In this document: positions 5,163 to 45,148 of the stretch, piece by piece
Layout: every line of letters begins with the position of its first letter
Position numbering within the stretch: the stretch's first letter is position 1
Assembly: GCA_035533075.1 (NCBI GenBank)
Contig: DATLUO010000088.1
Coordinates: forward strand, 4,139 to 68,138
Length of the DNA: 64,000 nt
From: Pirellulales bacterium
Lineage (GTDB): Bacteria > Planctomycetota > Planctomycetia > Pirellulales > JAICIG01
Direction: 5' to 3'
The notes under the pieces: model-generated
Database searches by the model: none
The model's input: the letters and a program-made list of their open reading frames with translations, nothing else
Told to the model about the DNA's origin: nothing
Position numbers and translations under genes: made by a program

Positions 5163-5166
5163 GGGA

Positions 5167-6680: not shown

Positions 6681-6687
6681 GACAGTT

Positions 6688-6870
6688 GTAGGGTGGGACC
6701 AGCGAGCTTGCGAGCGCCGGTCCACCGCGTTGGAGAGAGGGACGGAGAGAGGGAGCGATGCAGCGAGAGACGTCGGCTCGCACTCGGAGTTCTCTCCCTC
6801 TCTCTTTCTCTCCGTCTCTCCTTCGTTGACCGCGGGCCGGCGCTCGCAAGCTCGCTCGCTCCCACCCTAC
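6688..6870. repeat. Composite inverted repeat: two REP-type-1 arms (6688-6727 and 6832-6870) around a GA-rich/CT-rich inverted core
   Basis: GTAGGGTGGGACCAGCGAGCTTGCGAGCGCCGG... faces ...CCGGCGCTCGCAAGCTCGCTCGCTCCCACCCTAC. The core has GGAGAGAGGGACGGAGAGAGGG opposite CTCTCCCTCTCTCTTTCTCTCCGTCTCTCC. Confidence 0.9.
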
Positions 6871-14389: not shown

Positions 14390-14522
14390 TTGCGTTCAAG
14401 ACATAGCTCTGCTATGAACATTGTTTCATGTTGGGGGCCGCAAACGCCAGTCGCCGGAGGTCGCCGTGGCTAAGCTGCAGTTCAAGGCGGAGAAGATCGC
14501 TGAGTTTAGCGACTCGCGCGAA

Positions 14523-15188
14523 ATGCCGGCGTACAGCATTCCCCAAGCCGCGCACTACCTGCAGATGCCGGTGGCGACGTTGCGTTCGTGGGTTCTTGGC
14601 CGCGATTATCCGACCGGACGCGGAACGAAGCGATTTAGGCCGGTCATCCGCCTGCCAGACGAAGAAAGGCCGCTGCTCTCGTTCTTTAACCTCGCGGAGG
14701 CCCACGTGCTCAATGCCCTGCGGCGCGATCACAGCATCCGCCTGCAAGACGTCCGATCGGCGCTCAATTACATCCAAAACGAGTTGGGAGCGGCGCATCC
14801 GCTTCTCGACTACCGATTCGAAACGAACGGCGTCGCGTTGTTCGTGACCAAGCTCGGCAAACTGGTCGAGGCGTCGGCGGCCGGCCAACTCGTCATGCGA
14901 GAGGTGTTGGACGCTTATCTGAAGCGTCTCGAGCGCGAGGATCTCGTGGTGGCCAGGCTGTATCCTTTCACTCGGGCCCGAGAGACCGACGGCCCGAAAC
15001 TCGTGTTGATCGACCCGAGGCACTCCTTCGGGCGACCGGTGCTGGCGCGTGCGCGAATTGCCACGGCCGTCATTGCCGAGCGGTACAAGGCGGGCGAATC
15101 CATCGACGATCTGGCCGACGACTATGCCTGCGAAAGGCTCGAAGTCGAGGAAGCGCTCCGTTGCGAGCTCTCACTCGAAGCCGCCTGA
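14523..15188 (+). CDS. DUF433-type antitoxin-like protein with an N-terminal HTH-like region
   Basis: Within ORF 14421..15188. The C-terminus IDPRHSFGRPVLARARIATAVIAERYKAGESIDDLADDYACERLEVEEALRCE fits the DUF433 pattern. The start is uncertain: the ATG at 14523 (MPAYSIPQAAHYLQMPVATLRSW) or the upstream start at 14421. Confidence 0.7.
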   Translation: MPAYSIPQAAHYLQMPVATLRSWVLGRDYPTGRGTKRFRPVIRLPDEERPLLSFFNLAEAHVLNALRRDHSIRLQDVRSALNYIQNELGAAHPLLDYRFETNGVALFVTKLGKLVEASAAGQLVMREVLDAYLKRLEREDLVVARLYPFTRARETDGPKLVLIDPRHSFGRPVLARARIATAVIAERYKAGESIDDLADDYACERLEVEEALRCELSLEAA

Positions 15189-15600
15189 AGCCCCCACGTT
15201 CTTCCTCGATAAGTGTCTCGGGCGAAAGGTCGTGGCCGGCGCGCTTCGCTCCGCGGGCGAAAATGTCGAGGTGCTCACCGATCACTTCGACCCTGACGCG
15301 CCGGATGCTGAATGGCTGCGGGCGGTCGGGCAACGCGGCTGGGTTATTCTCACGAAAGACCGGCATATTCGCAGCAACCAGATCGAAATCGTCGAGTTGA
15401 TGGCGTCCGGCGCGCCATGTTTTACGCTCACGTCGGCAAATGCGACGGGCGAAGATATGGCCCGAGCGTTCGTTGCGGCTTTGCCTGTCATGAAGCGCTT
15501 CATGGGCAAATTCGCGCCGCCCTTCATCGCCACCATCAGCCTGTCAGGGGCCGTGTCGATGCTCTACACGCATGCCGCGCTCATCAAGCGTGTGAAATAG
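15124..15600 (+). CDS. DUF5615/PIN-like putative toxin, partner of the DUF433 protein
   Basis: Within ORF 15049..15600. The core is FFLDKCLGRKVVAGALRSAGENVEVLTDHF...GWVILTKDRHI. The only canonical start is the ATG at 15124, which gives a 65-nt out-of-frame overlap with the upstream gene. An ACG sits at 15196-15198, exactly where a start would be expected. Confidence 0.6.
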   Translation: MPAKGSKSRKRSVASSHSKPPEAPTFFLDKCLGRKVVAGALRSAGENVEVLTDHFDPDAPDAEWLRAVGQRGWVILTKDRHIRSNQIEIVELMASGAPCFTLTSANATGEDMARAFVAALPVMKRFMGKFAPPFIATISLSGAVSMLYTHAALIKRVK

Positions 15601-15641: not shown

Positions 15642-15745
15642 GTAGCCCGGAACGGGCGTGACTCGATAGCCCAGGGTGCAGCGCAGTGGAACCCTGGGTT
15701 ATCGGCCACAAATGACGACAAAGCCCCAACGGGGCGTGATTCTCG
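15642..15745 (-). repeat. REP-like element type 2, copy 1
   Basis: The reverse complement reads ...TCACGCCCCGTTGGGGC...CCCAGGGTTCCACTGCGCTGCACCCTGGGCTATCGAGTCACGCCCGTTCCGGGCTAC. This aligns with 25684-25795. It contains nested hairpins (CCCAGGG/CCCTGGG and GCCCC/GGGGC). Confidence 0.8.
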
Positions 15746-16173: not shown

Positions 16174-16428
16174 ATGCCGTCACGTGTGTTTTTCCCGAGA
16201 GCATGCTGCCGCAGGTTCGCTGGGGCGATCAAGCGGAACGTCACGGTCCGCGGGCCCGTGTACTACTTCGCCGACCAGCCCTTTCCCAAGCTCGTGTATG
16301 TAAGGGAGCTGGAAATCCATCCCTGCGACGACGAGCTGCCTTCTCTCGGCGGCCTGCGCGGGCTGGCCCCCGGCTCGACGGGCGATCTGTCGGCCGTCGA
16401 TTTTGTCAGGTCGCTGCGCCATGACTAA
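16174..16428 (+). CDS. Putative VapB-like antitoxin (only its C-terminal part is recognisable)
   Basis: Within ORF 16138..16428. The C-terminus ...LGGLRGLAPGSTGDLSAVDFVRSLRHD ends in the overlap ATGACTAA with a downstream MTNDGKP... start. The same 3' end recurs at 17466-17638, in front of a PIN fragment. The N-terminal frame and start are uncertain. Confidence 0.35.
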   Translation: MPSRVFFPRACCRRFAGAIKRNVTVRGPVYYFADQPFPKLVYVRELEIHPCDDELPSLGGLRGLAPGSTGDLSAVDFVRSLRHD

Positions 16429-16441
16429 CGATGGCAAGCCG
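16251..16441 (+). repeat. 191-bp direct repeat, copy 1 (antitoxin 3' end plus the first 7 codons of a PIN gene)
   Basis: Aligns with 17462-17652 without large gaps, roughly 85-90% identical by eye. Both copies end in CGCCATGACTAACGATGGCAAGCCG. Confidence 0.85.
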
Positions 16442-16469: not shown

Positions 16470-16853
16470 CTAGCCAAGCGCTGGTGCGCGGACGACCGAT
16501 GTCAGGGAGAGAAGTTGCTGGGCCCGTCGCTTCCGTTCGCCTTTCGGCAGGTCGCAATAGACGTTGGCATGCGCGAGATTCGCAGGGAAGTTTTCGTCCC
16601 TCTCGATCCTTGCATCAAAGCCAAGCTGGCGCGCGGGCCCCGACTCGAATTGCACCATCCCGCTCCCGGATCGAAACCGCGTGAGCGTCTGCTCCGACGT
16701 TGCCAGCGAGGCCACGTCGACCGAGAACACGGGAAACGCGAACGCCGCCGAAGACACGCGGTTCTCCGCCGCGACCCACCAGTCGCGCGACGTGATCGCG
16801 CGGCTTAGAGTTTCATTCGCCGGCACCTCCGGTCCGCGCGCGGCGTCAGACAT
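16470..16853 (-). CDS. Hypothetical 127-aa protein, downstream partner in a two-gene module (possible toxin)
   Basis: ORF 16470..16853. Its ATG overlaps the upstream stop within ATGTCTGA. The sequence is protein-like (...VSSAAFAFPVFSVDVASLATSEQTLTRFRSGSGMVQFESGPARQLGFDARIERDENFPANLAHANVY...). No family recognised. Confidence 0.55.
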   Translation of the reverse strand: MSDAARGPEVPANETLSRAITSRDWWVAAENRVSSAAFAFPVFSVDVASLATSEQTLTRFRSGSGMVQFESGPARQLGFDARIERDENFPANLAHANVYCDLPKGERKRRAQQLLSLTSVVRAPALG

Positions 16854-17334
16854 TCGCCCCCGCCCCCGTGAACCAGCCGATCAGGGCTACCGCTTTCTCG
16901 GTGTCGTCGATCCCAAACACGTCCTCCTCCTGCACTCCTTCGGTCGGATCCCATTTCAGATAATGAATCGTGACCGGATCTTCGACTTCGAGTTCCAGGA
17001 TTCTTCGGCCCTTGTGCCATTCGAACTGCAACGCGCCGCTCGACATCGGCACGACCAACGGCGGTTCGACGATATGGGCGGCGAGCCGGGCGGCAAATCG
17101 CCGGGCGGCATCCAGGATATCGTCGTTGATTGCCGGCCCGCCATAGCCGTCCCAATTCGGTTTTAAGGCGGCCAGCCGCTCGATTTCGGCATCGAGCGAG
17201 CGTTCCACCTCGGGCTGCCGACGACCGACCGGCGCGCTGATTGTCAGGCGCACTTCCGTGCCTTCCGCCAGCTCCAGTGGCTGCCGCGGCCTGAGGACGC
17301 CGTTCTCGTAGATGGCTGCGATGGTGATGCTCAT
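16846..17334 (-). CDS. DUF104-like antitoxin domain fused to an unknown C-terminal domain
   Basis: ORF 16846..17334. The N-terminus MSITIAAIYENGVLRPRQPLELAEGTEVRLTI is the typical DUF104 signature. The C-terminal ~120 aa contain LKPNWDGYGGPAI...LQFEWH... Confidence 0.65.
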   Translation of the reverse strand: MSITIAAIYENGVLRPRQPLELAEGTEVRLTISAPVGRRQPEVERSLDAEIERLAALKPNWDGYGGPAINDDILDAARRFAARLAAHIVEPPLVVPMSSGALQFEWHKGRRILELEVEDPVTIHYLKWDPTEGVQEEDVFGIDDTEKAVALIGWFTGAGANV

Positions 17335-17461
17335 GGTTCGCGCTCACCTCGATTCTACCATGCCGGGGTCATCGATTCGAGGAGCCGAACTGGAAACAAC
17401 CCCAGCGCTTCGCCCCGCGGCTTTCGCATGACGCGCGTTCCGGGCTATGCACTGCCGCGAC

Positions 17462-17652
17462 GCGGCCCGTTTACTACTACGCCGACCAGCCCTTTCCCAA
17501 GCTCGTGCATGTAAGGGAGTTGGAAATCCATCCCCGCGACGACAAGCTGCCCTTGCTTGGCAGCCTGCGCGGACTGGCACCCGGTTCGTCGGGCGAGCTC
17601 TCGGCCGTCGATTTTGTCAGGTCGTTGCGCCATGACTAACGATGGCAAGCCG
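17462..17652 (+). repeat. 191-bp direct repeat, copy 2
   Basis: See 16251-16441. This copy has no upstream start codon in the antitoxin frame, so it is only a 3' fragment of that gene. Confidence 0.85.
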
Positions 17653-17802
17653 ATCTACTGCTGGGACGCCTCGGTCTTTCTTGCTTGGATCAACGAGGAG
17701 GCCGGTGCAGTTGGGGGACATTGCCTCATCGGTTCTGAACTGTCGGGAGCGAAGATGAGCCTGGCGCACACGATCGAACTCAGCCGTGAACGTCCGCCAT
17801 GA
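17632..17802 (+). pseudogene. Truncated PIN-domain (VapC-like) toxin gene
   Basis: MTNDGKPIYCWDASVFLAWINEE... is a typical PIN N-terminus, with the first acidic residue in the WDASV context. Similarity is lost after about 25 codons and the ORF ends at 56 aa, whereas a PIN domain is about 130 aa. The helicase stop codon is 47 nt downstream. Confidence 0.55.
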
Positions 17803-17848
17803 TAGCCAGCGCGACAGGCATTATTGGCACGCTGATTTGGCGCTGGCC

Positions 17849-20800
17849 TCACGTGGGCGCAAGCGACAATCGGCATGCTTCAATAAGCTGACGGACACGC
17901 TCTTCACCTACCTTCTCCAGCAAAAAACGGACGAGATCCTCCTGTCGGTTTTGCCCGAAGGCCATGCGATAGATGACAAGCGAGCGGCGCAGTTGATCCT
18001 CTTTGGGAATATCACGACTGAGAGGCAATGCCGGTATGTGCCTCTCGATCTTGGCGGGACCGTCGAGCGTAACCCAGAACGGAAACAAATCGTTGAAATC
18101 AGCGGATCTCGCGATTCTCGCGGCCTCAAACATCGCGGCCCAAATGTCTTTCGATCCGTTGAGCGATACGGGCCCGTGAGCGGCGGCGATGTTCTTACGC
18201 AGCGCGTGGCCCTTGTAACGGTGGACGCGCCCTTCTCTTTGCTCAAGGTCGACCGGATTCGAGGGCAGGTTCCAATGCACCACCGCGTGGCAATAGGGAT
18301 GAAAGTCGAGGCCCTCTTGACCAACGGATGTTGTCGCCAGCACGAACGGCCAAAACGGCGAGTTGAACGCCGATCGGACCTGGTCGGCGCGCGTCGGTTC
18401 GCTGCCGTCGTCGGCGTCCTGGTCGCCAAACCGCATGGCGAATCGCGTTCTCAAGCGGATTGGCTCGCTTCGGACACTCCGCGAGCTGACCGTTAGTATG
18501 TCTACCTGCGTGGTGGCCGTGCGAAGCGTCAAGCAGCGTTGCATCTCCTTCGAAAGCTCGTCAGCGATCATCGTCGTCGGCTTATCGGTGAGGCCCAGCG
18601 ACTCAATCAACATGTGAGCATATTCGTCGAGCACCGCCTGCAGATTGCCGTCCAGGCAATACGACAGGACTGACTGCCAGTAGGGCGTCTCGCGCTTTCG
18701 ATCGCGAAGCACAGCCATCGCTTCCGGGAGATTGAAAAGGCGCAAGAACGAATGGGCCAGCGCCGCGGCAGCCGTCTTCACGGCATCGCTAGCCACCTCT
18801 TCTTCGGCAACGATATGACGTTTCAGAGCGCGGAGACATACGACGCCCAGGCCGGCAAAGCCACTCTTCGCCGTCACCTCACAAAGATCGCTGGGGGGCG
18901 GTCCAAGTTCCAACCGACCATCGAGAAACTCTTGGGCCTTCTTCACGTGCGTTTCCCATCCAAGGGCCGAATCGTCATCAGTGGTCTGCGTTGGTTCGCC
19001 GGACCATGATTGACTCAATCTCGGCTGCGCAAACCAGCGCTGCACTTCACCGGGGTGGTGCCTGAGATCCAGCAGCAAAGGAGCCGCCCAATACCACGAT
19101 TCGTCCGCGGGGCCCGGACGCTGGCGAGCCGCCGTCAATTCCTCTTGCAACGCTGATTCAATGCTGTCGGCCCCGGCTTGCACCAACTCGGCGACGGGCA
19201 CGGGAAGCTGCTCCCCGCGCAAACGCCGCGCGAGCAACAGCGGGTCGAGTTGCTCAACCAACCAGCGGCAGGGATAAATAAGGCCCAACACCGGCATGCC
19301 GGTCGGCCTGCCCTTGGCGAATGTAAACCTCAACAACGCGCGCCGCTTCTTACGCGCCTCAGCGGTGTTTCTCGCCTTTTTGGAGAACGTCCGCATCATT
19401 CGGCGTTCCGCCTCGTAGCTCAAGATCGCCGAAATGGCCTTGGGCACGACCCGCCAACAAGAAAACACGAGGCGCTTGGTGAAGCATTGTAGCGTCGGCG
19501 TCGCGAAAGCGCCCCTCGGTTCAGAATACGGCAGCGACGGTGGAATCCATAGCAGGCGCCACGCGCCGCGCTCGATCACGTCGTCGTGCAGTGCGCGCAA
19601 TCGAGCGTTACCTGGATCGAGTTTGCCATACGCCTCAATGACTTCCGGACGAAGGAGTCCGGCCTTGGCTCCGCGCATGGCGTCGACGAATTTGGATGCT
19701 TGCCGCTCCGACGCCAATTCGTCGCGCAGCGTTCGCTTAAGTTGGTACTCATCCATGAAGTTCAGTAGGTACGGCGCGGACTTCCAGTATTCGAGCACGT
19801 CATCACTTTCGAGACTGCGGGCCACGCGTTGCAAAACCAGGTACTGTTCGACGTCGCTTTCCATCAGTTGTGGCCGCATCTGCTTCACGTCGGCCAGCAT
19901 GCCGTTGCGGTCGGGCGTCAGTGCCAGCCGTTCCGTGCGGACCATCACTTGTCGCAACGCCACCTCGAGCTCGCGCTTTACGCCGAGCAGTTGCTCATTT
20001 CCGCCTACCGCGACGTCGAAAAGATGCTCGCGATATCGCCGAATCAATCCGGCGACGTGGTCCCTGGAGGATGGCGACGGCATCAAAAAGTGAAGCGTGC
20101 GTTCAAAATCGGCGTAATGGTCGTCCTGGTCTTTTTCCCGCGCGAGCGTATACATTTTGTACGGCGTTGCCGACAGGAGTAGCACGCGCGCGGCCAGCGA
20201 AGAATCGGTTTGCGACTGCTGATAATTGAACAGGTGGTGCGCAAGCTGCGCCGCCTCGGTCGGCTCTTCCACGTCGGACTCGAGCAAATGCTTGAATCGC
20301 TGAAACTCGTCGAGAATAATCAGGTCCGGCTCGAGCCAATTCAGGCACGATTCGGCCAGAAGCCTGCGTAGCTCGCCAATGAGCCGGTTGCGGTCACGGT
20401 GCAGCTCAGGCGGCACGGTCATTCCGGCCCGGGGCATTGCGCCGCAGAGTTCGTCGAACTTGCGCAACAAATCCGTATTGCTCAATCGCTCCCAAAACAT
20501 CTTCGCAATTTTTGGGTGAGGCGACGGATGTGCTGTGGGAAAGCAGTCCACTTGGTTGCGAAAGGAATCCGTGCCGGCATTCGCCTCGAACAAACGGGTC
20601 GCCCTGGTCCGTGAGACATCATGTTCGTTGGCGATCAGCCAATAGATCAGGACCCGTTCCAGCGATTGACCGGCCCCGTGGCTCAACTCAAACGACGTGC
20701 CGGGCGTGAAGGAGACGAAATTCAGCCGACGCAGCCGCATGTTTGCCAAAGTCAACGGAAGAAGGGTGATGCGCGAGGCCAGGCAGAAGTCTTTCTGGCC

Positions 20801-21094
20801 CGTGACGTTCAATCGATTGATGTTTTGCCGTGCAATGTCTGTGTTCGAGCAGACGTAAACCACGTCGATCCGCTGCGTGCGGTCCCAAAGGTGGTCGATG
20901 GCCTTGGCGATGACGCCCCGCGCCACGAGCGTTTTCCCCAATCCAACCTCGTCAGCGACAAGGAAACGACGCGCGTGGTCGGCGTCAGTATAGAGTCGCC
21001 GAAATACGTGCTCGACGGTTTCGCGTTGAAAGTCCTTCAACTGCGCAAGAATGGCAGCGGTCGTCGGGCGAGAGGCGCTTGGTTTGCTCGGCAT
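17849..21094 (-). CDS. SF2 helicase-related protein (1081 aa), third gene of the candidate defence operon
   Basis: Within ORF 17849..21388. The ATG at 21094 is preceded by GAGGA and lies 16 nt after the PLD stop. Motif I is LVADEVGLGKTLVA, motif II DLIILDEFQ, motif III LLLSATPYK, and motifs V/VI are ATTSVGQEGLDF...NPVDLEQREGRVHRYKG. Confidence 0.88.
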   Translation of the reverse strand: MPSKPSASRPTTAAILAQLKDFQRETVEHVFRRLYTDADHARRFLVADEVGLGKTLVARGVIAKAIDHLWDRTQRIDVVYVCSNTDIARQNINRLNVTGQKDFCLASRITLLPLTLANMRLRRLNFVSFTPGTSFELSHGAGQSLERVLIYWLIANEHDVSRTRATRLFEANAGTDSFRNQVDCFPTAHPSPHPKIAKMFWERLSNTDLLRKFDELCGAMPRAGMTVPPELHRDRNRLIGELRRLLAESCLNWLEPDLIILDEFQRFKHLLESDVEEPTEAAQLAHHLFNYQQSQTDSSLAARVLLLSATPYKMYTLAREKDQDDHYADFERTLHFLMPSPSSRDHVAGLIRRYREHLFDVAVGGNEQLLGVKRELEVALRQVMVRTERLALTPDRNGMLADVKQMRPQLMESDVEQYLVLQRVARSLESDDVLEYWKSAPYLLNFMDEYQLKRTLRDELASERQASKFVDAMRGAKAGLLRPEVIEAYGKLDPGNARLRALHDDVIERGAWRLLWIPPSLPYSEPRGAFATPTLQCFTKRLVFSCWRVVPKAISAILSYEAERRMMRTFSKKARNTAEARKKRRALLRFTFAKGRPTGMPVLGLIYPCRWLVEQLDPLLLARRLRGEQLPVPVAELVQAGADSIESALQEELTAARQRPGPADESWYWAAPLLLDLRHHPGEVQRWFAQPRLSQSWSGEPTQTTDDDSALGWETHVKKAQEFLDGRLELGPPPSDLCEVTAKSGFAGLGVVCLRALKRHIVAEEEVASDAVKTAAAALAHSFLRLFNLPEAMAVLRDRKRETPYWQSVLSYCLDGNLQAVLDEYAHMLIESLGLTDKPTTMIADELSKEMQRCLTLRTATTQVDILTVSSRSVRSEPIRLRTRFAMRFGDQDADDGSEPTRADQVRSAFNSPFWPFVLATTSVGQEGLDFHPYCHAVVHWNLPSNPVDLEQREGRVHRYKGHALRKNIAAAHGPVSLNGSKDIWAAMFEAARIARSADFNDLFPFWVTLDGPAKIERHIPALPLSRDIPKEDQLRRSLVIYRMAFGQNRQEDLVRFLLEKVGEERVRQLIEACRLSLAPT

Positions 21095-21110
21095 GGTAGT
21101 TGTTCCTCGG

Positions 21111-23027
21111 TCACTTTTTCGAGGCTTTCGAGCGGTGCTTGCGGCGCGCGTCGATAATCGGCCTCCAGACTTCATGGAAGCCTTCCGGCAAAAGTCGTCG
21201 CCCCTCCGGGGATTTTTCCAAATCCAGAACGAGATGCTCCACCTCGTCGATCTGGTCTGGACGACGGTCGAGCGCTTGCAGCAGCGATTCCAGCAGCGAG
21301 GCGACGAGTGAATCGCCGAAGACACCGTTGGCGGCGTTCTCCGAGGCTGCCGCGAACAGGCTGGCAAAGTTGGCCTCATCCGGATCAATCAGAAGCAGGA
21401 GGAGAAAACGCAGCACGCTTTGGCGATCGACCAAGAGATGCCGCAGGACGCACTCGGAACGGTCAGCAGGCGCGTTCACCAGTGGAAGGTAAAGTACAAA
21501 CTGGTGGGAGAATTGGCCGTCCGCGGAGACAAGCTCCCAGGCGAAGAATGAAGTTAGGCCGATTAACGAAACGGGCACAAAGCGGCACCATACGTCGTGA
21601 TCAAAGGAGATTGCCGTGCTCTGGCTTGGTCCGAGACTGATCGGCCAAACTCGCAACGTCGAGCCGGTCGGTGGTGATACGCGGCCCGACTTTGTGGGAC
21701 GCACAACCAACGCATAATGGTTCTCATCACATTTTTCACAATCCGCCACGGCGGCGCGCATCGCGATCTGCTTCGCCAATTCGTCCGCTTGCCGGTCGAA
21801 TAGCAACTGATCGGACGGAAGCACTGTTGTTTCCGGGTGTTCGACGAACGGCCTTAGCAAGTCACGCAAGCAGGCAATGTGTTTGTCTTCGTCATCACCG
21901 GACCGGCCCATGATCGTCGCGATGCCATAGCGGCTCTTTTTGCCGCGCAACTCGACCAGAAACTCGACATTGCTCGCGAACGCCACGCCCGTGGCGTTCG
22001 CCGAACCGGTCCAGATGCGGCTGTTCCAGCCGGCGTCGGCTATGTAGCACTTGGCGTGCAGACCGAGCAACGCCGGACCGGCCATTTCATCGCCGTGCCG
22101 AGAGTCGGAGGCATTTTTCGATTCGGAGCCTTGGAAATTGAGAGCGGTGGCGGCGTCTTCCTGCTCCGGCTGGGCGGTCTCGTCGAGGACCCAAACCCGC
22201 TCAAATCGAGCAAGCTCCGCCGACGGCAAGCAATCGAGGGTTTCGGCCCTGGACACTAATTCAAGCGGCGCCGAATACGGCGCGATCCTGTTGACGAATC
22301 CGGCATCGACGAACGGTGAGATCACGAGCATCCTGTCGATCCGGTCGTCGAACGGCCAGTCATCGGTTTCGCCCAGACCGATCGGCCAATAACGAACGTC
22401 CTCGAATTGCTCTGGCAGGCTAAAATCGACGCGCCGCAGCTCGTGGGCAAGTTGTTCGATCCGCTTTCGCCATTCGGAGGCCAGGCTGCGCCGCGACATT
22501 TTGGGTAGGCTTTCGACGAACTGGCCCAGCGGATGATTGCGCGCGAATGCGTTGGATCGGTCGCAAAGCGGGCCTTCCATGCATAGCATCGTGTCCCACG
22601 AGCGATCGAAGGTCATGTTGCGGCTTAAACAAAGCATTCGGTACGTCACGGTCGCATCCGGGCCCAAGTACCGCAGAAACCAAATCTTTGGATGGAAGCT
22701 TCCGCCGCGAGGCGCAAGCGCCTCCGCGATCGAGCCCTCGAGGTTCACCAGCAGCGGCTGGTAGCTGCGCGGCACATGAATGCGTCCCGCTTGGCAGAAC
22801 AGCAGAATGCGGTGCGCATATTGGCGAGTTGCCTTCAAGAGCGAGAGCGGTTCCAGGACTGGGTTCCCCTGTCGGTCCTGCCAGTCGGAAAAGGCGAACG
22901 CCACAGGAGCGGCCAAAAGAGCGATCAAGTCCAGCGAATACGTCGTTCCGACTGCCCAATCGAGCCTGTGCTCGGGCGGAGGAGCGAGGGTTTCCAGCAG
23001 TAGCTTCCGGCTATGAGGCTCAAGCAT
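21111..23027 (-). CDS. Phospholipase-D-family (two HKD motifs) nuclease-like protein, second gene of the operon
   Basis: ORF 21111..23027. The first HKD-like motif is GGSFHPKIWFLRY...LSRNMT. The second is LGLHAKCYIADAGWNSRIWTGSANATG. The ATG lies 3 nt after the upstream stop. Confidence 0.85.
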   Translation of the reverse strand: MLEPHSRKLLLETLAPPPEHRLDWAVGTTYSLDLIALLAAPVAFAFSDWQDRQGNPVLEPLSLLKATRQYAHRILLFCQAGRIHVPRSYQPLLVNLEGSIAEALAPRGGSFHPKIWFLRYLGPDATVTYRMLCLSRNMTFDRSWDTMLCMEGPLCDRSNAFARNHPLGQFVESLPKMSRRSLASEWRKRIEQLAHELRRVDFSLPEQFEDVRYWPIGLGETDDWPFDDRIDRMLVISPFVDAGFVNRIAPYSAPLELVSRAETLDCLPSAELARFERVWVLDETAQPEQEDAATALNFQGSESKNASDSRHGDEMAGPALLGLHAKCYIADAGWNSRIWTGSANATGVAFASNVEFLVELRGKKSRYGIATIMGRSGDDEDKHIACLRDLLRPFVEHPETTVLPSDQLLFDRQADELAKQIAMRAAVADCEKCDENHYALVVRPTKSGRVSPPTGSTLRVWPISLGPSQSTAISFDHDVWCRFVPVSLIGLTSFFAWELVSADGQFSHQFVLYLPLVNAPADRSECVLRHLLVDRQSVLRFLLLLLIDPDEANFASLFAAASENAANGVFGDSLVASLLESLLQALDRRPDQIDEVEHLVLDLEKSPEGRRLLPEGFHEVWRPIIDARRKHRSKASKK

Positions 23028-23030
23028 TGC

Positions 23031-24239
23031 CTAGTTTCCCAAACTCGGCAGTATATCCGACACGATCGACTTGGCGGCGTTCCAGCGAAGATCCATTTGC
23101 CCGGCTCCCGCGGCGCCGTTCCACAGCTCCAGCGCTCTCCTGTTTTTCAGGCGCGATTGTCCGCGTTTGAGCGCATACTCACGGCGGTCGATAAGAGCGC
23201 GGGTCGCCTGGCCGTCGACAATTCCTGCGACGTTGGCCGTCACCAAAACGGCATTGATCCACTGATTGACGAACGCCTGCGCAGGGAAGCTCACTTGTGG
23301 ATTCGCGCCGCGAACAATTTGCCAAAACCGCCGGCGATCCCAGTTTCTTAGGTCATCACGGCGCCGAGTCAGGAGTTCCCACCACTCGGTGAGAGCCTCG
23401 CGGTATTCATCGATTTGCTCCGGCCACGGTCGAAGTTCGGCCAGCATCAGGTTGTAAAGCAGTTGGGCGCCCCACATGATCTCTGAAAAATTTCGCCCAT
23501 GCGTCAACTGTTCAGTGAACACGTCCGGCACGTCGTGCGCAAGGTCCCAGCAGGCATCGACTTCGCCTACCGAAATCCGCGTGCGAAGGATGTGTGCCAG
23601 GAAGGATCGCGGGCAATTCGCCAGGACCCGTTCACGAAGATACTCGGCCTCGGGCTGCGAGAGGTCAAAGGTAATGCCTTGCGGAAAACTTGGGGGCGCC
23701 GCGGGGATGCCGCCGTGCCAGTTGCAAATGTCGGGATCGGGTGGAGTTTCTCCGCCAAAGTCCTGCCGCGATGGTCGGCCCTGTCGGCGCGCATAGAACA
23801 GCTTGAGCGAACGGTGGTATTGGTCTTCTGAGCCAGGGAAAAGGCGAATTCCCCATGTTTCGAGCCCAAGCCAATAGACGCTGCTTGCGAGTCGCCGCAC
23901 GTTTTCCCTGGCCCGCTTGCCAATCAAGCCGCTTGAATCACCCGACGAGGCGATGACGTTCATCAACTCCACTTCAAGCTTTCGGGCACGATGCTCGACG
24001 CGGTCGGGTGCGACCTGCTTTTCTTCGAGTGTCAGGTAGATCCAGGGCACGAACAGGAAGTATTTCGCGCGCGTCTGGATCGTGCTGGTGCCCGGAAACA
24101 GTAAATCCGCGAATGCGTCACGGACCCCGCCCAAACCAAGCTCGTCCCTCGTCGCGCGTTCGCCGAAAAGCTCGATGACGTCGAGCATTTTGCGACGCTC
24201 AGATTCCGAATAGTCAAGCCAAGTGAAAGTAGATGGCAT
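23031..24239 (-). CDS. Hypothetical 402-aa protein, first gene of the operon (unknown function)
   Basis: Within ORF 23031..24254. I prefer the ATG at 24239 (MPSTFTWLDYSESERRKMLDVIELFGERATRDELGLGGVRDAFADLLFPGTSTIQTRAKYFLFVPW...). I recognise no catalytic motif. From memory, similar proteins next to PLD and helicase genes are labelled DUF6361, but this is unverified. Confidence 0.75.
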   Translation of the reverse strand: MPSTFTWLDYSESERRKMLDVIELFGERATRDELGLGGVRDAFADLLFPGTSTIQTRAKYFLFVPWIYLTLEEKQVAPDRVEHRARKLEVELMNVIASSGDSSGLIGKRARENVRRLASSVYWLGLETWGIRLFPGSEDQYHRSLKLFYARRQGRPSRQDFGGETPPDPDICNWHGGIPAAPPSFPQGITFDLSQPEAEYLRERVLANCPRSFLAHILRTRISVGEVDACWDLAHDVPDVFTEQLTHGRNFSEIMWGAQLLYNLMLAELRPWPEQIDEYREALTEWWELLTRRRDDLRNWDRRRFWQIVRGANPQVSFPAQAFVNQWINAVLVTANVAGIVDGQATRALIDRREYALKRGQSRLKNRRALELWNGAAGAGQMDLRWNAAKSIVSDILPSLGN

Positions 24240-24335
24240 TTGGATTATTCTCACTGTGCATGGCGCTTCGGCGTCCGCCCTGGTTGCGATCCCATCCGAC
24301 GGTGACGGAGAATGACTGACCGAGAATATACCAGA

Positions 24336-25196
24336 TCACGGCCGTAGTCCATCGGTGGTATAGCCCCTGTCACACTCTCGGGATCCGTAGGAAGCCTTGA
24401 TCACGCGGCCGCATGGCATGACCCGTGATTGGCGCTCATGAAGGCGGGCGTGCCGGCGACGTGCCCCGCCAGCGCGCTGCGTTTCCTCGCTCACCAACAG
24501 GCCGAAGTCGGCCACGTGCGGCCGGCCCTGTTCGTCGAGCAGGATGTTGGCCGGCTTCAGGTCGCGATGAACGAAGCCGAGCTTGTGGGCGTGGCGCAAG
24601 GCGTCGGCCACCATTTCCAGTAGCTCCGCGGCGCGGCCGGGCGCGACGGGGCCGCCGTCGATAAGTTCCGCCAGCGTTTGGCCGGGCACGTACTCCATGA
24701 CGATGTAAAGCCGATTGTTTTCGCGACCGACGTCATGGATGGTGACGATCTGCGGATGATTAAGACTGGCGGCGTGGCGGGCCTCGGTGCGGAACTTGTC
24801 GAGCGCGCCGGCCGTGGTGAAGGTGCCGACGCGCGAGACTTTGATCGCTACGTCGCGGTTCAGATCGGGGTAGCGGGCCAGGTAGACATTGCCGAAGGCG
24901 CCGGCGCCGAGGGTGGACTGTTTCTGGTAGCGGCCGAGTTGCGTGGGGGCGGGTTCGTCTTCGCGGCCCTCACCCCAACCCTCTCCCGGCGGGAGAGGGA
25001 GTTCGCCGCGCATCAGGGCGAACAGCGATTCGAGCCTCTGATCGGCCGCGAAGGCGCCGGCGAGTTTTGGATCGGCGGCCAGAGAAGCGTCGAGCCGGCC
25101 GGCGTCGATGGCGTGGCCGAGCGTTTCGTCGAAGTCGTCGCGCGGCGTGTCCGCGTCGGGCAAAGCAAGCGGCGAGTCAGCAAGCGGCTGGTTCAT
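24336..25196 (-). pseudogene. Ser/Thr protein kinase, frameshifted and 3'-truncated
   Basis: Gly-loop LGAGAFGNVY, VAIK, HRDLKPANILL and ADFGL are present. After DFG the frame is lost: GHVAGTPAFMS is readable in another frame around 24434-24470. Kinase similarity stops at about 24434, inside subdomain VIII. Subdomains IX-XI are absent. Confidence 0.75.
24979..24999. repeat. Perfect 9-bp-stem palindrome CCCTCTCCC-GGC-GGGAGAGGG inside the kinase N-terminal region
   Basis: Seen directly. It is translated in frame as ...LPLPPGEGWGEG..., a peptide signature typical of a GC-rich palindromic repeat rather than of kinase sequence. Confidence 0.7.
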
Positions 25197-25363: not shown

Positions 25364-25669
25364 TCACTCGGGCTTCTCCGGCACGAGACTGCGCCGCGCC
25401 GCGCGTTCGCGTTGAATGTGCTCCAACAGTTCGTCGGGATCATCGTCGGCCGGCCACAGGTCGCTCAACTCATCGAGTTCCGAGACCGGCGAAACTCCCT
25501 GCTGGGCCGCCAGCTCGTCAAGCGATGGCGATTTCCAGAAGGACGGAGCGGCAGATTCATCGGGCACGACGCGCGGCTCGAATTCAACGCGGGTGCGTTC
25601 GGGCAGGTCAACCGGACCGACTGGGCGAAATACGCCTTGTTCATAAATGGCGTGAATGACGTTGCTCAT
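25364..25669 (-). CDS. DUF104-like antitoxin, apparently orphan
   Basis: Within ORF 25364..25690. The ATG at 25669 is preceded by GAGGA. The N-terminus is MSNVIHAIYEQGVFRPVGPVDLPERTRVEF and the tail is acidic (...LDELSDLWPADDDPDELLEHIQRERAARR). No toxin gene follows. Confidence 0.65.
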   Translation of the reverse strand: MSNVIHAIYEQGVFRPVGPVDLPERTRVEFEPRVVPDESAAPSFWKSPSLDELAAQQGVSPVSELDELSDLWPADDDPDELLEHIQRERAARRSLVPEKPE

Positions 25670-25683
25670 AGCGAATCCTCTCG

Positions 25684-25795
25684 GAGTCACGCCCCATCGG
25701 GGCCACTTTGGTTCATCCTATCTATTCACCCAGGGTCCCGCTGCGCTGCGCCCTGGGCTATCGAATCGCGCCCCTTCGGGGCTACGGTGCGGAAT
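25684..25795 (+). repeat. REP-like element type 2, copy 2
   Basis: GAGTCACGCCCCATCGGGGC...CCCAGGGTCCCGCTGCGCTGCGCCCTGGGCTATCGAATCGCGCCCCTTCGGGGCTAC. It is inverted relative to 15642-15745. Confidence 0.8.
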
Positions 25796-29772: not shown

Positions 29773-32268
29773 ATGCAACGCAGGCCAATGGCGGTGACGG
29801 CGGTCGTTCTTCTGGTCGCATTCGGGTATAGTTCGGCCCCGGCCAGGGCGGCGAAAACGCCGGGCCTCGGCGATCCCGGTCGCCTTGCCAGCGCCGAGTT
29901 CGCCAAGATCGGCCAGCCGCCGCTCGATGGGCCGGACGCACGCAAGCAACTGCTCGTCGACGGCATGTATTCCAGCGGCCAGGTGCGCGATCTGACGCCC
30001 ACGATCACCTGGCAGGCCTCGCCCGGGGGCATTGTGGCCATCAGCCCGACCGGCCTGGTGACGCCGCTGGCCGACGGTGTCGTCAAGATCACGGCCAAGT
30101 CGGAAGGTGGCATGCAGGCGGTAACCGAACTGACCGTCAAGAACTTCAATACGCCCCGCCCAATCAACTTTCCCAACCAGATCGTACCGATCTTCACCAA
30201 GAACGGTTGCAATGCGGGCGGCTGTCACGGCAAGTCCACTGGCCAGAACGGCTTTCGTCTTTCGCTGCTCGGTTTCTATCCCAGCGACGACTACGAGTTT
30301 CTCGTCAAAGAGGCCCGCGGCCGACGGCTGTTCCCCAGCGCGCCCGACCAAAGCCTGTTGCTGTTGAAAGCCACCAACACCGTCGCGCACGGCGGCGGGC
30401 ATCGCCTGGAAAAAGAGAGCTATGAATACGGGCAAATCGTCCGCTGGCTCGAGCAAGGGATGCCCTATGGCAAGCCCGACGATCCCGTGGTCGAGCGCAT
30501 CGAAGTCTTCCCCGACACGCGGGCGATGGACCGCGACAGCCGGCGGCAACTGGCCGTGTTGGCTTATTACAGCGACGGCTCGACCGAAGACGTGACGCAC
30601 ATCGCTCAGTATGAATCGAACGACGGCGAGATGGCCGAAGTGTCGCCGGCCGGGCTGGTTCACACGTTCGACCTGACCGGCGACGTGGCCGTGATGGCCC
30701 GCTTTCAGGGGCAGGTGAGCGTGTTTCGCGCCACGCTGCCGCTGGGCATCGAGGTGGCCGACGGCAGCCTGCCGCCGCGCCGCAACTTTATCGACGAGCT
30801 GGTCTTCGCGAAGCTCAAGGCACTCGGCATTCCGCCGTCGCCCGTTTGCGACGACGCCACCTTCGTGCGGCGTGCCACGCTCGACATCGCCGGGCGGATC
30901 CCCGCGGCCGATGAAGCCCTGGCGTTCACGGCCGACACCGATTCGCAAAAGCGGGACAAGCTGATCGACCTCCTGCTTGATAGCGCCGGTTACGCCGATT
31001 ACTTCGCCAACAAGTGGAGCGTCATCCTGCGAAACCAGCGGGTGAACCAGAACTACACCCGCGGCACCTACGCCTTCCACGATTGGATTCGCCGCGGCAT
31101 TCTGACCAACAAGCCCTACGACCAGTTCGTCCGCGACATTGTTGGAGCGTCGGGCGAGATGGGGCAGAACCCGCCGGTCGCCTGGTACCGGGCCGTGCAG
31201 ACCTCCGAGCAGCAGCTTGAAGACACGGCCCAGCTTTTCCTCGGCCTGCGGATTCAGTGTGCCCGTTGCCATCATCATCCCTTCGAGCGTTGGAGCCAGC
31301 ACGATTATTACTCGTTCTCGGCGTTCTTCTCGCGCGTGGGCCGCAAGAACGGCATCAACGGCCTGCAGCCCCGCGACGAGCAGCGGATCTTTCACAACCG
31401 CGGGGAAGCCGTTGCCCGCAACCCTCGCACGGGCGAAAACCTCAAGCCCGCCGGCCTGGGAAGCGGGCCGGTGGAGATCGAGCCCGAGCACGATCCGCGG
31501 CAGGCATTGGTGGATTGGATGGCCTCCGCCGACAACCCCTTCTTCGCGCCGGCCTTGGTGAACCGTTACTGGAAACACTTCATGGGCCGCGGCATCGTCG
31601 AGCCGGAAGACGACATGCGCGTGACCAATCCTGCGTCGAATCCCGAATTGTTGCAGGCATTGGCCCGGCATTTCATCGACAGCCGCTTCGACATGAAGGA
31701 GCTGATCCGCACGATCTGCCGATCGAGCAGCTATCAACTCAGCTCGGAGCCGAACGAGTTCAACGCCGCCGACAAACAGAACTTTTCGTATTACCATCCG
31801 AAGCGACTCAACGCCGAAGTGCTGTACGACGCTTTGAATCAGGTGACGGCGACGGCGACGAATTTTAGCGGCCTGCCGTCGGGCACGCGGGCGGTGCAGT
31901 TGCCCGACAGCGGCGTGCAGAATTATTTTCTGACGGTGTTCGGCCGGCCGCAGGCCACCAGCCCCTGCGAGTGCGAGCGGTCGCAAGAAGCGAACCTGGC
32001 TCAGAGCCTGCACTTGTTGAACTCCAACGAGGTGCAAGGCAAGCTGCAAGCCGGCGACGGCCGGGCGGCCAAGCTGGCCCGCGACAAAGACCGTAGCGAC
32101 GCCGACAAGATTCGCGAGTTGTATGCCTGGGCCTACGCCCGCCAGCCCGACAAGGGCGAGCTTTCGTTGACGATCGACTATTTGGCCCGGCACGAGAACA
32201 AGCAACAGGCTTACGAGGACATTCTTTGGGCGTTGATCAATACCAAAGAGTTTTTGTTCAATCATTAG
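29773..32268 (+). CDS. DUF1549/DUF1553 protein with an N-terminal Ig-like (Big_2) domain and a planctomycete cytochrome-c-like motif
   Basis: Within ORF 29746..32268, start at the ATG at 29773. GCNAGGCHGKSTGQNGFRLSLLGF; DELVFAKLKALGIPPSP...TLDIAGRIP (DUF1549); IQCARCHHHPFERWSQHDYY (DUF1553). Confidence 0.85.
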   Translation: MQRRPMAVTAVVLLVAFGYSSAPARAAKTPGLGDPGRLASAEFAKIGQPPLDGPDARKQLLVDGMYSSGQVRDLTPTITWQASPGGIVAISPTGLVTPLADGVVKITAKSEGGMQAVTELTVKNFNTPRPINFPNQIVPIFTKNGCNAGGCHGKSTGQNGFRLSLLGFYPSDDYEFLVKEARGRRLFPSAPDQSLLLLKATNTVAHGGGHRLEKESYEYGQIVRWLEQGMPYGKPDDPVVERIEVFPDTRAMDRDSRRQLAVLAYYSDGSTEDVTHIAQYESNDGEMAEVSPAGLVHTFDLTGDVAVMARFQGQVSVFRATLPLGIEVADGSLPPRRNFIDELVFAKLKALGIPPSPVCDDATFVRRATLDIAGRIPAADEALAFTADTDSQKRDKLIDLLLDSAGYADYFANKWSVILRNQRVNQNYTRGTYAFHDWIRRGILTNKPYDQFVRDIVGASGEMGQNPPVAWYRAVQTSEQQLEDTAQLFLGLRIQCARCHHHPFERWSQHDYYSFSAFFSRVGRKNGINGLQPRDEQRIFHNRGEAVARNPRTGENLKPAGLGSGPVEIEPEHDPRQALVDWMASADNPFFAPALVNRYWKHFMGRGIVEPEDDMRVTNPASNPELLQALARHFIDSRFDMKELIRTICRSSSYQLSSEPNEFNAADKQNFSYYHPKRLNAEVLYDALNQVTATATNFSGLPSGTRAVQLPDSGVQNYFLTVFGRPQATSPCECERSQEANLAQSLHLLNSNEVQGKLQAGDGRAAKLARDKDRSDADKIRELYAWAYARQPDKGELSLTIDYLARHENKQQAYEDILWALINTKEFLFNH

Positions 32269-32282
32269 ATGCGGGGGGCAAG

Positions 32283-35200: not shown

Positions 35201-35375
35201 GACGCTTGCCGCCAACCAGAACGCCGGCCAACTTGTCATCGCGGCTGCCCCCAACGCCACGCCCGGCCGGCATGAGCTGCGACTGCAAGCGAACCTGCAG
35301 TTCAACAATCAGGGTCTGCAATGGATCGAGACGCTGCCGCTGACGATCGAGGCGGTTGAGGTCGCAAAGAAATAA
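32283..35375 (+). CDS. Large secreted protein with two PPC (pre-peptidase C-terminal)-like domains and a ~170-aa Ala/Lys/Gln coiled coil
   Basis: Within ORF 32226..35375, start at the ATG at 32283. PPC-like segments are ETEPNSRVDQANEVPLGG...DQDFFQF and EKEPNNSAAKAQII...GDHDWFTF. The coiled coil runs ...AEAAAKRQADVEKILAERQAALKAA...KVKSAEQARQ. Confidence 0.75.
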   Translation: MMEKQNVGWAGARKLAGRTLRVCTVAAAFWTHAASAQLPVARLNSAFPPGGKQGSTIEVTLTGTDLDGADRLVFTHSGITAKQVILEPTEFDPQPRPADGKFTVSIAADVPPGMYEVRAAGKYGVSNPRYFVVDTQTEVNETEPNSRVDQANEVPLGGVVNGVSGGADQDFFQFPAKKGQRLLIDCQARRIDSRLDPMLVLYDARGNELASAHDGSHRDTLLDFTVPADGLYVVEVHDFIYGGGPDYFYRLALNTGPHVDFVFPPAGLPGTNQAYQIYGRNLPGGQAVPGMMIDGQPLDVVNASIALPKAAEADRLPAGTLIEPAASGIDAILYRLPSPQGLSNPVLVSLATAPVVPEKEPNNSAAKAQIIAPPCEVVGQFYPVGDHDWFTFDAKKSDAYVIEVVSQRLGESTDPYLMVEQVTVDKDGKPQVKELQQADDNMLNSGGFDFATTHDDPSFRFTAPDDGSYRILLRDLYSSSRGDPRFVYRLAVRLERPDFRLAALAKFPGSQPNQQQSLVWSPYLRKGGSDAIEIVAFRRDGFDGEIVVTAEGLPPGVTAAPVTIGPGRSAAALILMAADNAAATVAPFRVVGKAKIGTSDVTHAARAASIVWAGQPGQFNARSRLSGELVLAVSESEPAPVTLQAAGSVLEMSRAGKIEIPVSMTQHGDFKGNVTLSAVGLPPNIQPANQQMNAGQGETKFTLNLQTNAPPGTFSFHLLGTTQYSYRHNPEAAEAAAKRQADVEKILAERQAALKAANNNKNSATQSAQQADAEMKRMQQALQTAKSNAAAAEAKLKTAQQALAQAQAALDKDKESKSRAGALDAAEKNVKAADEMAKKAAEAQASAEKTATDAAAKAKDAADAKVAADKAAVEADAKVKSAEQARQVAVQAANNARNLANPRNINVGYPSTPVTIKITPSPVTITLPPNATLKQGAKLELPITINRLYGFTNQVQFNVQLPGGVGGLNIPQLTLAANQNAGQLVIAAAPNATPGRHELRLQANLQFNNQGLQWIETLPLTIEAVEVAKK
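32301..32343 (+). repeat. REP-like element type 1 (single unit) inside the 5' coding region
   Basis: GTAGGGTGGGCCGGCGCTCGCAAGCTCGCTGGTCGCACCCTAC has terminal 8-bp inverted ends. It is read in frame as VGWAGARKLAGRTL. Confidence 0.9.
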
Positions 35376-45034: not shown

Positions 45035-45081
45035 AATTGGAACAAGCAGGAAAACAATGTTCGTCGTGGTCTGGCGCTGTT

Positions 45082-45123: not shown

Positions 45124-45148
45124 GATGGTCTCCAGCCGCGGAAGCAGG

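Follow-up and report, generated by a model that had tools for sequence, protein, structure and literature searches.

A complete zacA-zacB-zacC operon of the Azaca family in a low-GC segment of a Pirellulales chromosome

The Azaca defence system was reportedly described by Millman et al. in 2022, its initial validation having been made with an operon from Bacillus. Its components are listed as a helicase, a PLD nuclease and a DUF6361 protein (10.1101/2024.10.26.620412; PMC10952713), and the mechanistic data on it come from one preprint on the Bacillus homologue (bioRxiv 10.1101/2025.07.10.664194). In that work ZacA, ZacB and ZacC together cleave phage T4 DNA, with all three proteins required, and T4 dsDNA is preferred in vitro over other substrates. 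The Bacillus system gives more than 1,000,000-fold protection against T4, has a narrow phage range, and is inactivated by mutation of either the PLD active site or the Walker A motif of ZacC (bioRxiv 10.1101/2025.07.10.664194). The same study found that ZacA is needed for DNA cleavage in vitro and that mutation of its conserved residues leaves complex formation and cleavage unchanged.

The DNA considered here is a 64,000-nt stretch from a Pirellulales bacterium (hereafter the window), in which a sequence-only reading had picked out three tightly coupled genes as a nuclease-helicase anti-phage module, possibly a new one, and had noted a likeness to Azaca. The likeness was well founded, the HMMs of ZacA, ZacB and ZacC each aligning with one of the three proteins from end to end; for the same reason the module is not new, since the PADLOC models already cover each protein at full length. 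With these full-length matches and a gene order conserved across phyla, we are confident that the cassette is a complete, intact and canonical Azaca operon (zacA-zacB-zacC), horizontally acquired into a small, low-GC island of toxin-antitoxin remnants and predicted to act as a nuclease-helicase defence. It thus belongs to an already known system, and phage protection by this copy is expected by analogy with its homologues.

Gene calls and the three Zac proteins

The ORF list of the window places three minus-strand ORFs at 23031-24254, 21111-23027 (638 aa) and 17849-21388. The first gene of the operon, zacA (23031..24239, minus strand), is started at the ATG at 24239, which yields a 402-aa DUF6361 protein beginning with MPSTFTWLDY, the start of the homologue consensus. 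It is followed by zacB (21111..23027, minus strand), encoding a 638-aa PLD-superfamily nuclease, and by zacC (17849..21094, minus strand), encoding a 1081-aa SF2 helicase/ATPase from the ATG at 21094, a start that has GAGGAA just upstream and is shared with the homologues and the ZacC HMM. The gaps are 3 nt between zacA and zacB ('gca', 23028-23030) and 16 nt between zacB and zacC (21095-21110). The co-directional arrangement, protein lengths and spacing first read from the letters were all reproduced exactly, and the motifs then named in ZacB and ZacC were found at the expected positions in the translations.

The 402-aa protein had been described as having no known motif; this did not hold, as it is a member of Pfam DUF6361 (E = 9e-64; 216 bits, cut-off 25), i.e., ZacA, and matches the PADLOC ZacA model with E = 7.3e-125 (residues 1-398 on profile positions 1-392 of 396). 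Its most conserved stretch among homologues is TRDELGLGG, at residues 30-38 (24126-24152 in the window). The AlphaFold2 model of ZacA is all-alpha (pLDDT 85.3, pTM 0.84), and Foldseek searches with this model revealed no structural relative, neither among the solved structures of the PDB (best E = 2.1) nor among the viral ones of BFVD (best E = 1.3). The most conserved N-terminal 30 residues are modelled at low confidence and look as if they may fold only on a partner.

ZacB matches the PADLOC ZacB model with E = 3.4e-161 (residues 1-631 on profile positions 1-584 of 586) and carries SFHPKIWFLRY at residues 110-120, GLHAKCYIAD at 322-331 and GSANAT at 341-346. Its motif 1 reads F-H112-P-K114-x4-R119 ... 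S135-R136-N137 and its motif 2 G-L-H324-A-K326-x4-D/E331 ... G341-S342-x-N344; across 68-69 homologues both vary little or not at all, and the four residues H112, K114, H324 and K326, all present here, are kept in 67-69 of these. The catalytic Asn is likewise conserved and present. Both motifs had been taken as HKD-type, a description that is correct for the two His-x-Lys sites but not for the Asp of motif 1, in place of which there is an invariant Arg119. The AlphaFold2 model of ZacB (pLDDT 82.4) has a two-lobed PLD fold with an extra beta-sandwich and helical C-terminal region (residues ~425-638). In Foldseek this model is closest to Tdp1 (E = 3.6e-7), along with further PLD enzymes; SauUSI (PDB 7clg, partial, E = 1.2e-3), BfiI and NgoAVII, which like Tdp1 act on DNA, match more weakly.

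That the ZacB model has its best structural counterparts in tyrosyl-DNA phosphodiesterases is what would be expected if the triad served housekeeping DNA repair rather than immunity, with a Tdp1-like phosphodiesterase clearing protein-DNA adducts in the company of a helicase. The TM-scores are modest, however (0.31-0.47), and the likeness lies in the PLD fold common to these proteins. The variable genomic context, the absence of conserved neighbours among related loci, the carriage on plasmids, the patchy distribution over phyla and the atypical GC content all argue against a repair module, as do homologues that protect against phage and degrade T4 DNA (bioRxiv 10.1101/2025.07.10.664194), and we consider such a role highly improbable.

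ZacC matches the PADLOC ZacC model with E = 0 and 1140.7 bits (residues 12-1080 on profile positions 6-1016 of 1019) and contains the Pfam domains DEAD, ResIII and Helicase_C. The motifs ADEVGLGKT (47-55), ILDEFQRF (260-267), LLSATPY (306-312) and EQREGRVHRYKGH (951-963) are present. Among 59 aligned sequences, identity is at least 95% in LKDFQ (19-23), the Walker A motif ADEVGLGKT (47-55, with K54), DEFQRF (262-267), LLSATPY (306-312) and GQEGLDFH (925-932), and the conserved form of motif VI (951-963) is EQREGRxxRxKGH. This ZacC has helicase motifs I, II, III, V and VI, all of which are conserved in its homologues. Sequence searches of ZacA, ZacB and ZacC against the PDB returned no relatives, and therefore no Azaca structure appears to have been deposited.

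Composition, flanks and related loci

The spot GC counts given earlier for the cassette (35/60, 31/60 and 32/60, against 42/60 in a core gene) were reproduced, and no other 6.4-kb stretch of the window is as poor in GC as the cassette (0.594; mean 0.632, sd 0.016). GC3 is likewise lower, 0.67-0.71 in the cassette versus 0.72-0.82 in five genes of the window that lie outside it. The two genes bordering it are both truncated, as had been proposed. At the left edge of the inserted cassette is the remnant of a PIN (VapC-like) gene (17632..17802, plus strand), whose N-terminus MTNDGKPIYCWDASVFLAWINEE is retained and whose translation, judged by eye rather than by an HMM test, is no longer PIN-like from ~17700. 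Ahead of this fragment lies copy 2 of a 189-nt repeat (17464-17652), which encodes an antitoxin-like C-terminus. The right edge is formed by a Ser/Thr kinase pseudogene (24336..25196, minus strand) that covers only positions 1-145 of the 263 in Pfam Pkinase; it is frameshifted after DFGL, with GTPAFMS in another frame, and its homology ends at ~24430. The low GC and GC3 and the truncated neighbours are signs of horizontal acquisition of the cassette.

The setting among toxin-antitoxin modules was also read correctly, with DUF433 + PIN_10 at 14421-15600 and AF2212-like ORFs at 16846-17334 and 25364-25690, all of toxin-antitoxin type. A domain scan of the flanking ORFs between 3780 and 35375, apart from some small ORFs, found no methyltransferase, including none of DrmMI/DrmMII type, which agrees with the earlier view that no such gene accompanies the cassette. 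A 58-nt inverted pair around the island was considered as a shared mobile-element end; it is absent in 80/80 related loci, resembles a local hairpin element of REP-like type, and is not taken here as a transposon boundary. Scans for tRNAs and Rfam families returned only a tRNA-Lys (1761-1834), far from the cassette.

Tabulating the co-occurrence of the three genes across genomes, a check proposed along with the original reading, gave results in favour of a defence module. The order A-B-C on one strand is found in 58 of the 61 related loci with at least 5.3 kb of downstream DNA, and these loci are spread over many bacterial phyla, archaea and plasmids, the hosts being Planctomycetota, Acidobacteriota, Verrucomicrobiota, Chloroflexota, Bacillota, Alphaproteobacteria, Myxococcota and Methanothrix. 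Plasmid-borne triads, in which the annotated loci keep this order, occur for example on Cronobacter pESA3, where the triad adjoins a tyrosine recombinase, and on a Halomarina plasmid. No conserved fourth gene or methylase was found in the flanks, the largest flank cluster being present in 5/80 related loci. A defence-gene scan of these flanks covered representatives of the three recurring clusters: those of the two largest match the defence helicases DruE and DrmD, and that of the third gives weaker, partial matches to UvrD-type GajB models.

Between the end of the kinase homology and the zacA start lies a leader (24240..24430, minus strand), which presumably carries the promoter. The leader contains no sigma-70-type consensus, and promoter and terminator sites over 17400-24700 are no more numerous than in shuffled sequence. 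Expression of the cassette is not guaranteed, its neighbours being decayed genes. These observations might be accommodated by an inactive relic that is neither expressed nor functional in its host: the genes directly on either side are pseudogenes, duplicated toxin-antitoxin remnants lie close by, no promoter-like site is seen upstream, and degraded versions exist elsewhere (loci L068 and L072, with a truncated ZacB and no ZacC). The ORFs of 402, 638 and 1081 aa are nevertheless uninterrupted, every family-invariant catalytic residue is kept, and a scan for the sigma-70 consensus is uninformative for Planctomycetes, so that we regard a relic as improbable.

Proposed mode of action

By homology with the Bacillus system, ZacA, ZacB and ZacC of the Pirellulales operon would work jointly, as a nuclease-helicase complex that depends on ATP; assembly into a complex, the need for ATP, cleavage of DNA and protection against phage are all predicted here from the homologues. 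The SF2 ATPase ZacC would bind or translocate on DNA, driven by ATP, and ZacB would cut the DNA at its two-lobed PLD site (His112/Lys114 and His324/Lys326) by way of a phospho-histidine intermediate. The all-helical ZacA would be an obligatory third subunit that may serve as adaptor, as licensing factor or as sensor; a sensor or specificity role is what the sequence-only reading had proposed for it. Self DNA would presumably be spared by recognition of a feature of phage DNA, in a manner resembling type IV restriction; such recognition is presumed because the genes come without a methyltransferase. In the Bacillus system this feature may be the glucosyl-hydroxymethylcytosine of T4. We know of no phages of the present host and of no glucosyl-hydroxymethylcytosine phages of Planctomycetes, and therefore the cue may differ from that in the Bacillus case. 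A fuller proposal, which we put forward only tentatively, is that the planctomycete Azaca reads a cue other than glucosyl-hydroxymethylcytosine, that ZacA either reads this cue or licenses the nuclease, and that the ZacB site is asymmetric (His-Lys-Arg / His-Lys-Asp/Glu). This proposal concerns the whole Azaca family and not this locus in particular.

A different mode would be abortive infection of the kind seen in Hachiman, in which ZacC would sense damaged or replicating DNA and ZacB would degrade all DNA, including that of the host. The combination of an SF2 helicase and a nuclease with no methylase is common to Azaca and Hachiman, for which this mode has been shown (ZacC is listed among defence helicases in PMC12278908), and a preprint that names Azaca as one example has hypothesised a similar mode for further systems of the nuclease-helicase kind (10.1101/2024.10.26.620412). 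The preference for T4 DNA and the narrow phage range of Bacillus Azaca, on the other hand, fit recognition of a phage feature better (bioRxiv 10.1101/2025.07.10.664194), and a HamA/DUF1837 match is absent from the three proteins. The abortive mode is accordingly judged unlikely, if less so than an inactive relic, and phage-feature recognition is kept as the working model.

As a member of the Azaca family the locus is one more copy, in a Planctomycetota chromosome, and is otherwise ordinary. The naming of a defence operon, and of the right family, from the raw sequence alone makes it a clean positive control for a genome scan. Questions on the role of ZacA, on self-sparing without a methylase and on the recognised phage feature belong to the whole family; the planctomycete copy could serve comparative biochemistry as a divergent orthologue, and these questions are not made newly testable by it. 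The predicted all-helical fold of ZacA, with no PDB relative, and the predicted Tdp1-like fold of ZacB, with its invariant Arg, would be additions at the level of the family.

Comparison with known nuclease-helicase systems

The earlier comparison of the cassette with DISARM and Mokosh stands in that a helicase plus a PLD protein is common to them, but it is a loose analogy only, in which HMMs match short PLD or helicase-C stretches at most. If the operon were not Azaca but a reduced form of DISARM or Mokosh, the evidence for it would be a weak, partial DrmC match on the second PLD motif (E = 0.0033) and matches of DrmA, DrmD and DpdE to a helicase-C region of ~60 residues, the sole DrmA match being a 58-residue helicase-C overlap (E = 2.7e-11). 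These matches span 40-90 residues and fall far below curated cut-offs (DrmC, 18.8 bits versus 133), there is no DUF1998/DrmB, methyltransferase or Mko match, and the Zac models match end to end; we give this assignment next to no credence. DISARM and Azaca both have a helicase and a PLD-type protein, but Azaca is without DrmB (DUF1998 is absent from all three proteins in the Pfam scan) and without a methyltransferase. DrmC is dispensable in DISARM. The PLD site, in contrast, is essential in Bacillus Azaca (bioRxiv 10.1101/2025.07.10.664194).

Mokosh and Hachiman share with Azaca a nuclease plus helicase logic, but both are without a DUF6361 subunit. Mokosh also has a PLD nuclease, with an NTPase of SF1, and the nuclease of Hachiman is DUF1837 (bioRxiv 10.1101/2025.07.10.664194). 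Neither MkoA/MkoB (type I) nor MkoC (type II) is among the PADLOC matches listed at E <= 0.01 (for ZacC, 25 of 26 matches), and no Ham model (HamA, HamB) or DUF1837 match was obtained with PADLOC or Pfam in the three proteins. Membership in DISARM, Mokosh or Hachiman was rejected on this HMM evidence.

Among solved folds, that of Tdp1 comes closest to the ZacB model: Tdp1 is one chain whose two PLD lobes each give a His and a Lys. The motifs of Tdp1 are also without the Asp of the classic HKD. Its identity to ZacB is ~10%, however, and it works by itself as a repair enzyme of eukaryotes, whereas ZacB has the additional beta-sandwich and helical C-terminal region and would need ZacA and ZacC.

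SauUSI-type ATP-dependent type IV restriction enzymes are the best functional analogy to Azaca. SauUSI consists of a single polypeptide that includes a target-recognition domain of its own. Like Azaca it combines a PLD nuclease with an SF2 helicase/ATPase and has no cognate methylase (PDB 7clg), and it attacks modified foreign DNA, as Azaca would by analogy. The resemblance does not extend to architecture: nuclease and helicase lie here on separate genes and the 7clg match is partial only, and Azaca is spread over three proteins and depends on ZacA, for which SauUSI has no counterpart. A Pfam scan of the Zac proteins showed none of the known modification-reading domains.

The closest system remains Azaca itself. 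The host here is a member of the Planctomycetota and the sequences have diverged, the nearest ZacA relatives in genome collections being 42-62% identical, but the operon shares with Azaca the three families (DUF6361, PLD nuclease and SF2 helicase), their order and tight spacing, the lack of a methyltransferase, full-length HMM matches and the catalytic motifs.

Identity and gene models of the cassette

The three genes at 17849-24239 can be identified from sequence as a canonical Azaca system, since their 402-, 638- and 1081-aa products match, essentially end to end, the PADLOC-DB models for ZacA (E = 7.3e-125), ZacB (E = 3.4e-161) and ZacC (E = 0, 1140.7 bits), the first protein is assigned to DUF6361 by Pfam (E = 9e-64), and a helicase, a PLD nuclease and a DUF6361 protein together constitute the published make-up of Azaca (10.1101/2024.10.26.620412; PMC10952713). 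Pfam also returned a weak PLDc_2 match over the second PLD motif of ZacB, and DEAD, ResIII and Helicase_C domains in ZacC. NCBIfam holds no specific model for the three proteins, giving only overlaps far below threshold with DrmC, DrmD and DpdE. Membership in DISARM, Mokosh or Hachiman was rejected on the HMM evidence (matches listed from PADLOC-DB, Pfam and NCBIfam). The likeness to Azaca suggested in the sequence-only reading thus pointed to the right family, and its interpretation of the operon as a nuclease-helicase immunity module is supported by that family membership. Its claim of novelty fails because Azaca is already defined and the PADLOC models detect all three proteins at full length; the first protein, in which no known motif had been seen, is covered by DUF6361 and ZacA.

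All three genes lie on the minus strand. The zacA ORF spans 23031-24254, and its ATG at 24239 yields the 402-aa protein with the N terminus MPSTFTWLDY, in agreement with the consensus start of 79 homologs. The zacB gene occupies 21111-23027 (638 aa). The zacC ORF extends over 17849-21388, with an ATG at 21094 that is preceded by GAGGAA, corresponds to the start point of ZacC homologs and of the ZacC HMM, and specifies 1081 aa. Both the ORF table and the intergenic sequence agree with the co-directional arrangement first described, with gaps of 3 nt (gca, 23028-23030) between zacA and zacB and 16 nt (21095-21110) between zacB and zacC.

Genomic setting of the cassette

The window is planctomycete chromosome, carrying PSCyt1/PSCyt2/PSD1 and DUF1501 genes along with ordinary genes (DsbD, an aminotransferase, two-component systems, polysaccharide export). 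No other 6.4-kb stretch of it is as low in GC as the cassette (0.594, against a window mean of 0.632, sd 0.016), whose GC3 of 0.67-0.71 compares with 0.72-0.82 for five window genes outside it; the four spot GC counts reported earlier were reproduced exactly on recount. GC content is 0.607 between about 14.0 and 28.3 kb and 0.640 outside. This stretch contains a DUF433 and PIN_10 pair, two AF2212-like ORFs, duplicated antitoxin/toxin remnants, the Azaca cassette, a kinase pseudogene and an IS5-family fragment, consistent with the earlier placement of the cassette among toxin-antitoxin modules. The two broken genes said to border it were also found: on the left a PIN N terminus, judged from translation, whose PIN-like sequence is lost at about 17700, and on the right a Ser/Thr kinase frameshifted after DFGL, whose homology stops at about 24430. 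Bounded by these two breaks, the inserted block is roughly 6.7 kb and contains zacABC only. No methyltransferase domain was detected in the flanking ORFs scanned, as the sequence-only reading had indicated.

A 58-nt inverted pair (15642-15699 and 25728-25785; 88% complementary, 10,028 nt apart) flanks the low-GC toxin-antitoxin/Azaca island on both sides, with half-copies at 17414-17447 and 25684-25706; its 23-nt core matches only the two full sites in the 64-kb window. Each copy could form two GC-rich hairpins, but the fold gains little stability over shuffled sequence (z = -2.7 and -1.2). In appearance the element is REP- or MITE-like, and none of the 80 related loci described below contains it. 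A 189-nt direct repeat (16253-16441 and 17464-17652; 90% identity) encodes in each copy an antitoxin-like C terminus (...VDFVRSLRHD*) with an ATGA overlap with a toxin start, MTNDGKP. The PIN N terminus continues only from the second copy, and both copies look like decayed toxin-antitoxin loci. Overlapping minus-strand ORFs at 16470-17334 form a toxin-antitoxin-like pair: the 162-aa ORF (16846-17334) has an AF2212-like N terminus and a C-terminal part matching the PADLOC candidate family PDC-M32A (E = 7e-9), and the 127-aa ORF (16470-16853) has no family match.

Elsewhere in the window, a tandem array at 2509-3038 (131-nt unit, 4 copies, 83% matches), whose unit begins with a palindrome (TTTGGCTGCGCGCAGCCAAA), lies about 700 nt from tRNA-Lys (1761-1834), and a perfect heptamer repeat (AGGGTTC, 6.3 copies, 5166-5209) lies between sigma-54 activator (3780-5162) and histidine kinase (5292-6725) genes. 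Strong, local AT-skew excursions (+0.386 at 34001-35000, +0.275 at 38001-39000 and -0.247 at 45001-46000) are located within or close to a 1049-aa PPC-domain ORF (32226-35375), an ABC-2 transporter gene and a TPR gene. A 2129-aa minus-strand ORF (57593-63982) with Big_13 and He_PIG Ig-like domains and internal repeats at 59325-60272 (unit 153 or 309 nt) probably encodes a large surface protein.

Distribution and gene order

At least 2989 ZacA homologs were found at E ≤ 1e-5 (8000 candidates scored, from a database of 5.8 billion proteins), the closest named ones among those scored belonging to Pirellulales and Gemmataceae. With one genome scanned per species, 186 relatives were obtained, from which 80 loci were kept; these span Planctomycetota, Acidobacteriota, Verrucomicrobiota, Chloroflexota, Bacillota, Actinomycetota, Alphaproteobacteria, Myxococcota and the archaeon Methanothrix. 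The proposed synteny check covered 61 loci in which at least 5.3 kb of sequence follows zacA, and 58 of them have the same-strand order zacA-zacB-zacC. The other three appear degraded: L040 has a short ZacC, and L068 and L072 have a truncated ZacB and lack ZacC despite 10 kb of downstream DNA. At another locus, L074, the 1.9 kb following zacA yielded no ZacB. No conserved fourth gene was found in the flanks of the 80 loci, the commonest flank cluster being present in 5; the two largest clusters are represented by proteins matching the defense helicases DruE and DrmD, and the representative of the third matches GajB models of the UvrD type only, more weakly and in part. The triad is also found on 48 plasmids, among them Cronobacter sakazakii pESA3, where it adjoins a tyrosine recombinase, and a Halomarina plasmid, under the RefSeq labels [quoted passage not shown]. 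Conserved order, variable flanks and plasmid carriage together are the pattern of a self-contained, horizontally mobile defense module, not of a housekeeping operon. A distant triad (27-34% identity) occurs at 12001-18209 of L083 (MT835621.1), a 24-kb unverified, unannotated "Bacteriophage sp." contig from a human fecal sample, and represents either Azaca carried by a phage or bacterial DNA present in a virome.

Catalytic motifs, predicted folds and proposed mechanism

Catalytic residues vary little or not at all across alignments of 59-69 homologs, and the window proteins carry all of them, including every motif quoted earlier for ZacB and ZacC. ZacC has Walker A (K54), DEFQ (262-265), SAT (308-310) and motifs V and VI. 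ZacB had been credited with two HKD-type motifs; both PLD motifs are present (F-H112-P-K114-x4-R119 ... S135-R136-N137 and G-L-H324-A-K326-x4-D/E331 ... G341-S342-x-N344), but the first, as read from the alignment, is not a true HKD motif because an invariant Arg holds the Asp position. With three long intact ORFs and every invariant residue present, the cassette is unlikely to be a silent relic.

In the AlphaFold2 model of ZacB (pLDDT 82.4, pTM 0.83), a PLD fold of two lobes precedes a beta-sandwich (about 425-515), after which comes a helical region (about 520-638). Among PDB structures the model is closest to Tdp1 (E = 3.6e-7), phospholipases D and vaccinia F13; it matches SauUSI, BfiI and NgoAVII, which are PLD restriction enzymes, more weakly. 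A Tdp1-like repair function is contradicted by the distribution of the triad, which is mobile, patchy and plasmid-borne, and by the phage protection published for Azaca. The ZacA model is all-helical (pLDDT 85.3, pTM 0.84), with no structural relatives in PDB or BFVD, and a sequence search of PDB with the three proteins found no Zac protein among the solved structures. Conservation across the family is among the highest in residues 1-30 of ZacA, yet these are modeled with low confidence, suggesting a segment that may fold on a partner.

Bacillus Azaca protects against T4 more than 1,000,000-fold with a narrow phage range, and prefers T4 dsDNA in vitro; all three proteins are needed, cleavage is lost when either the PLD site or the ZacC Walker A motif is mutated, mutation of conserved ZacA residues is without effect, and the glucosyl-hmC of T4 has been suggested as a possible cue (bioRxiv 10.1101/2025.07.10.664194). 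By homology, ZacABC of the window would form an ATP-dependent nuclease-helicase complex that picks out phage DNA through some feature host DNA lacks, degrades it and confers phage protection. Abortive DNA degradation of the Hachiman type seems improbable, as the substrate preference of the Bacillus system counts against it. The Azaca system of the window would be a functional analog of the SauUSI-type type IV restriction enzymes without being a member of that group.
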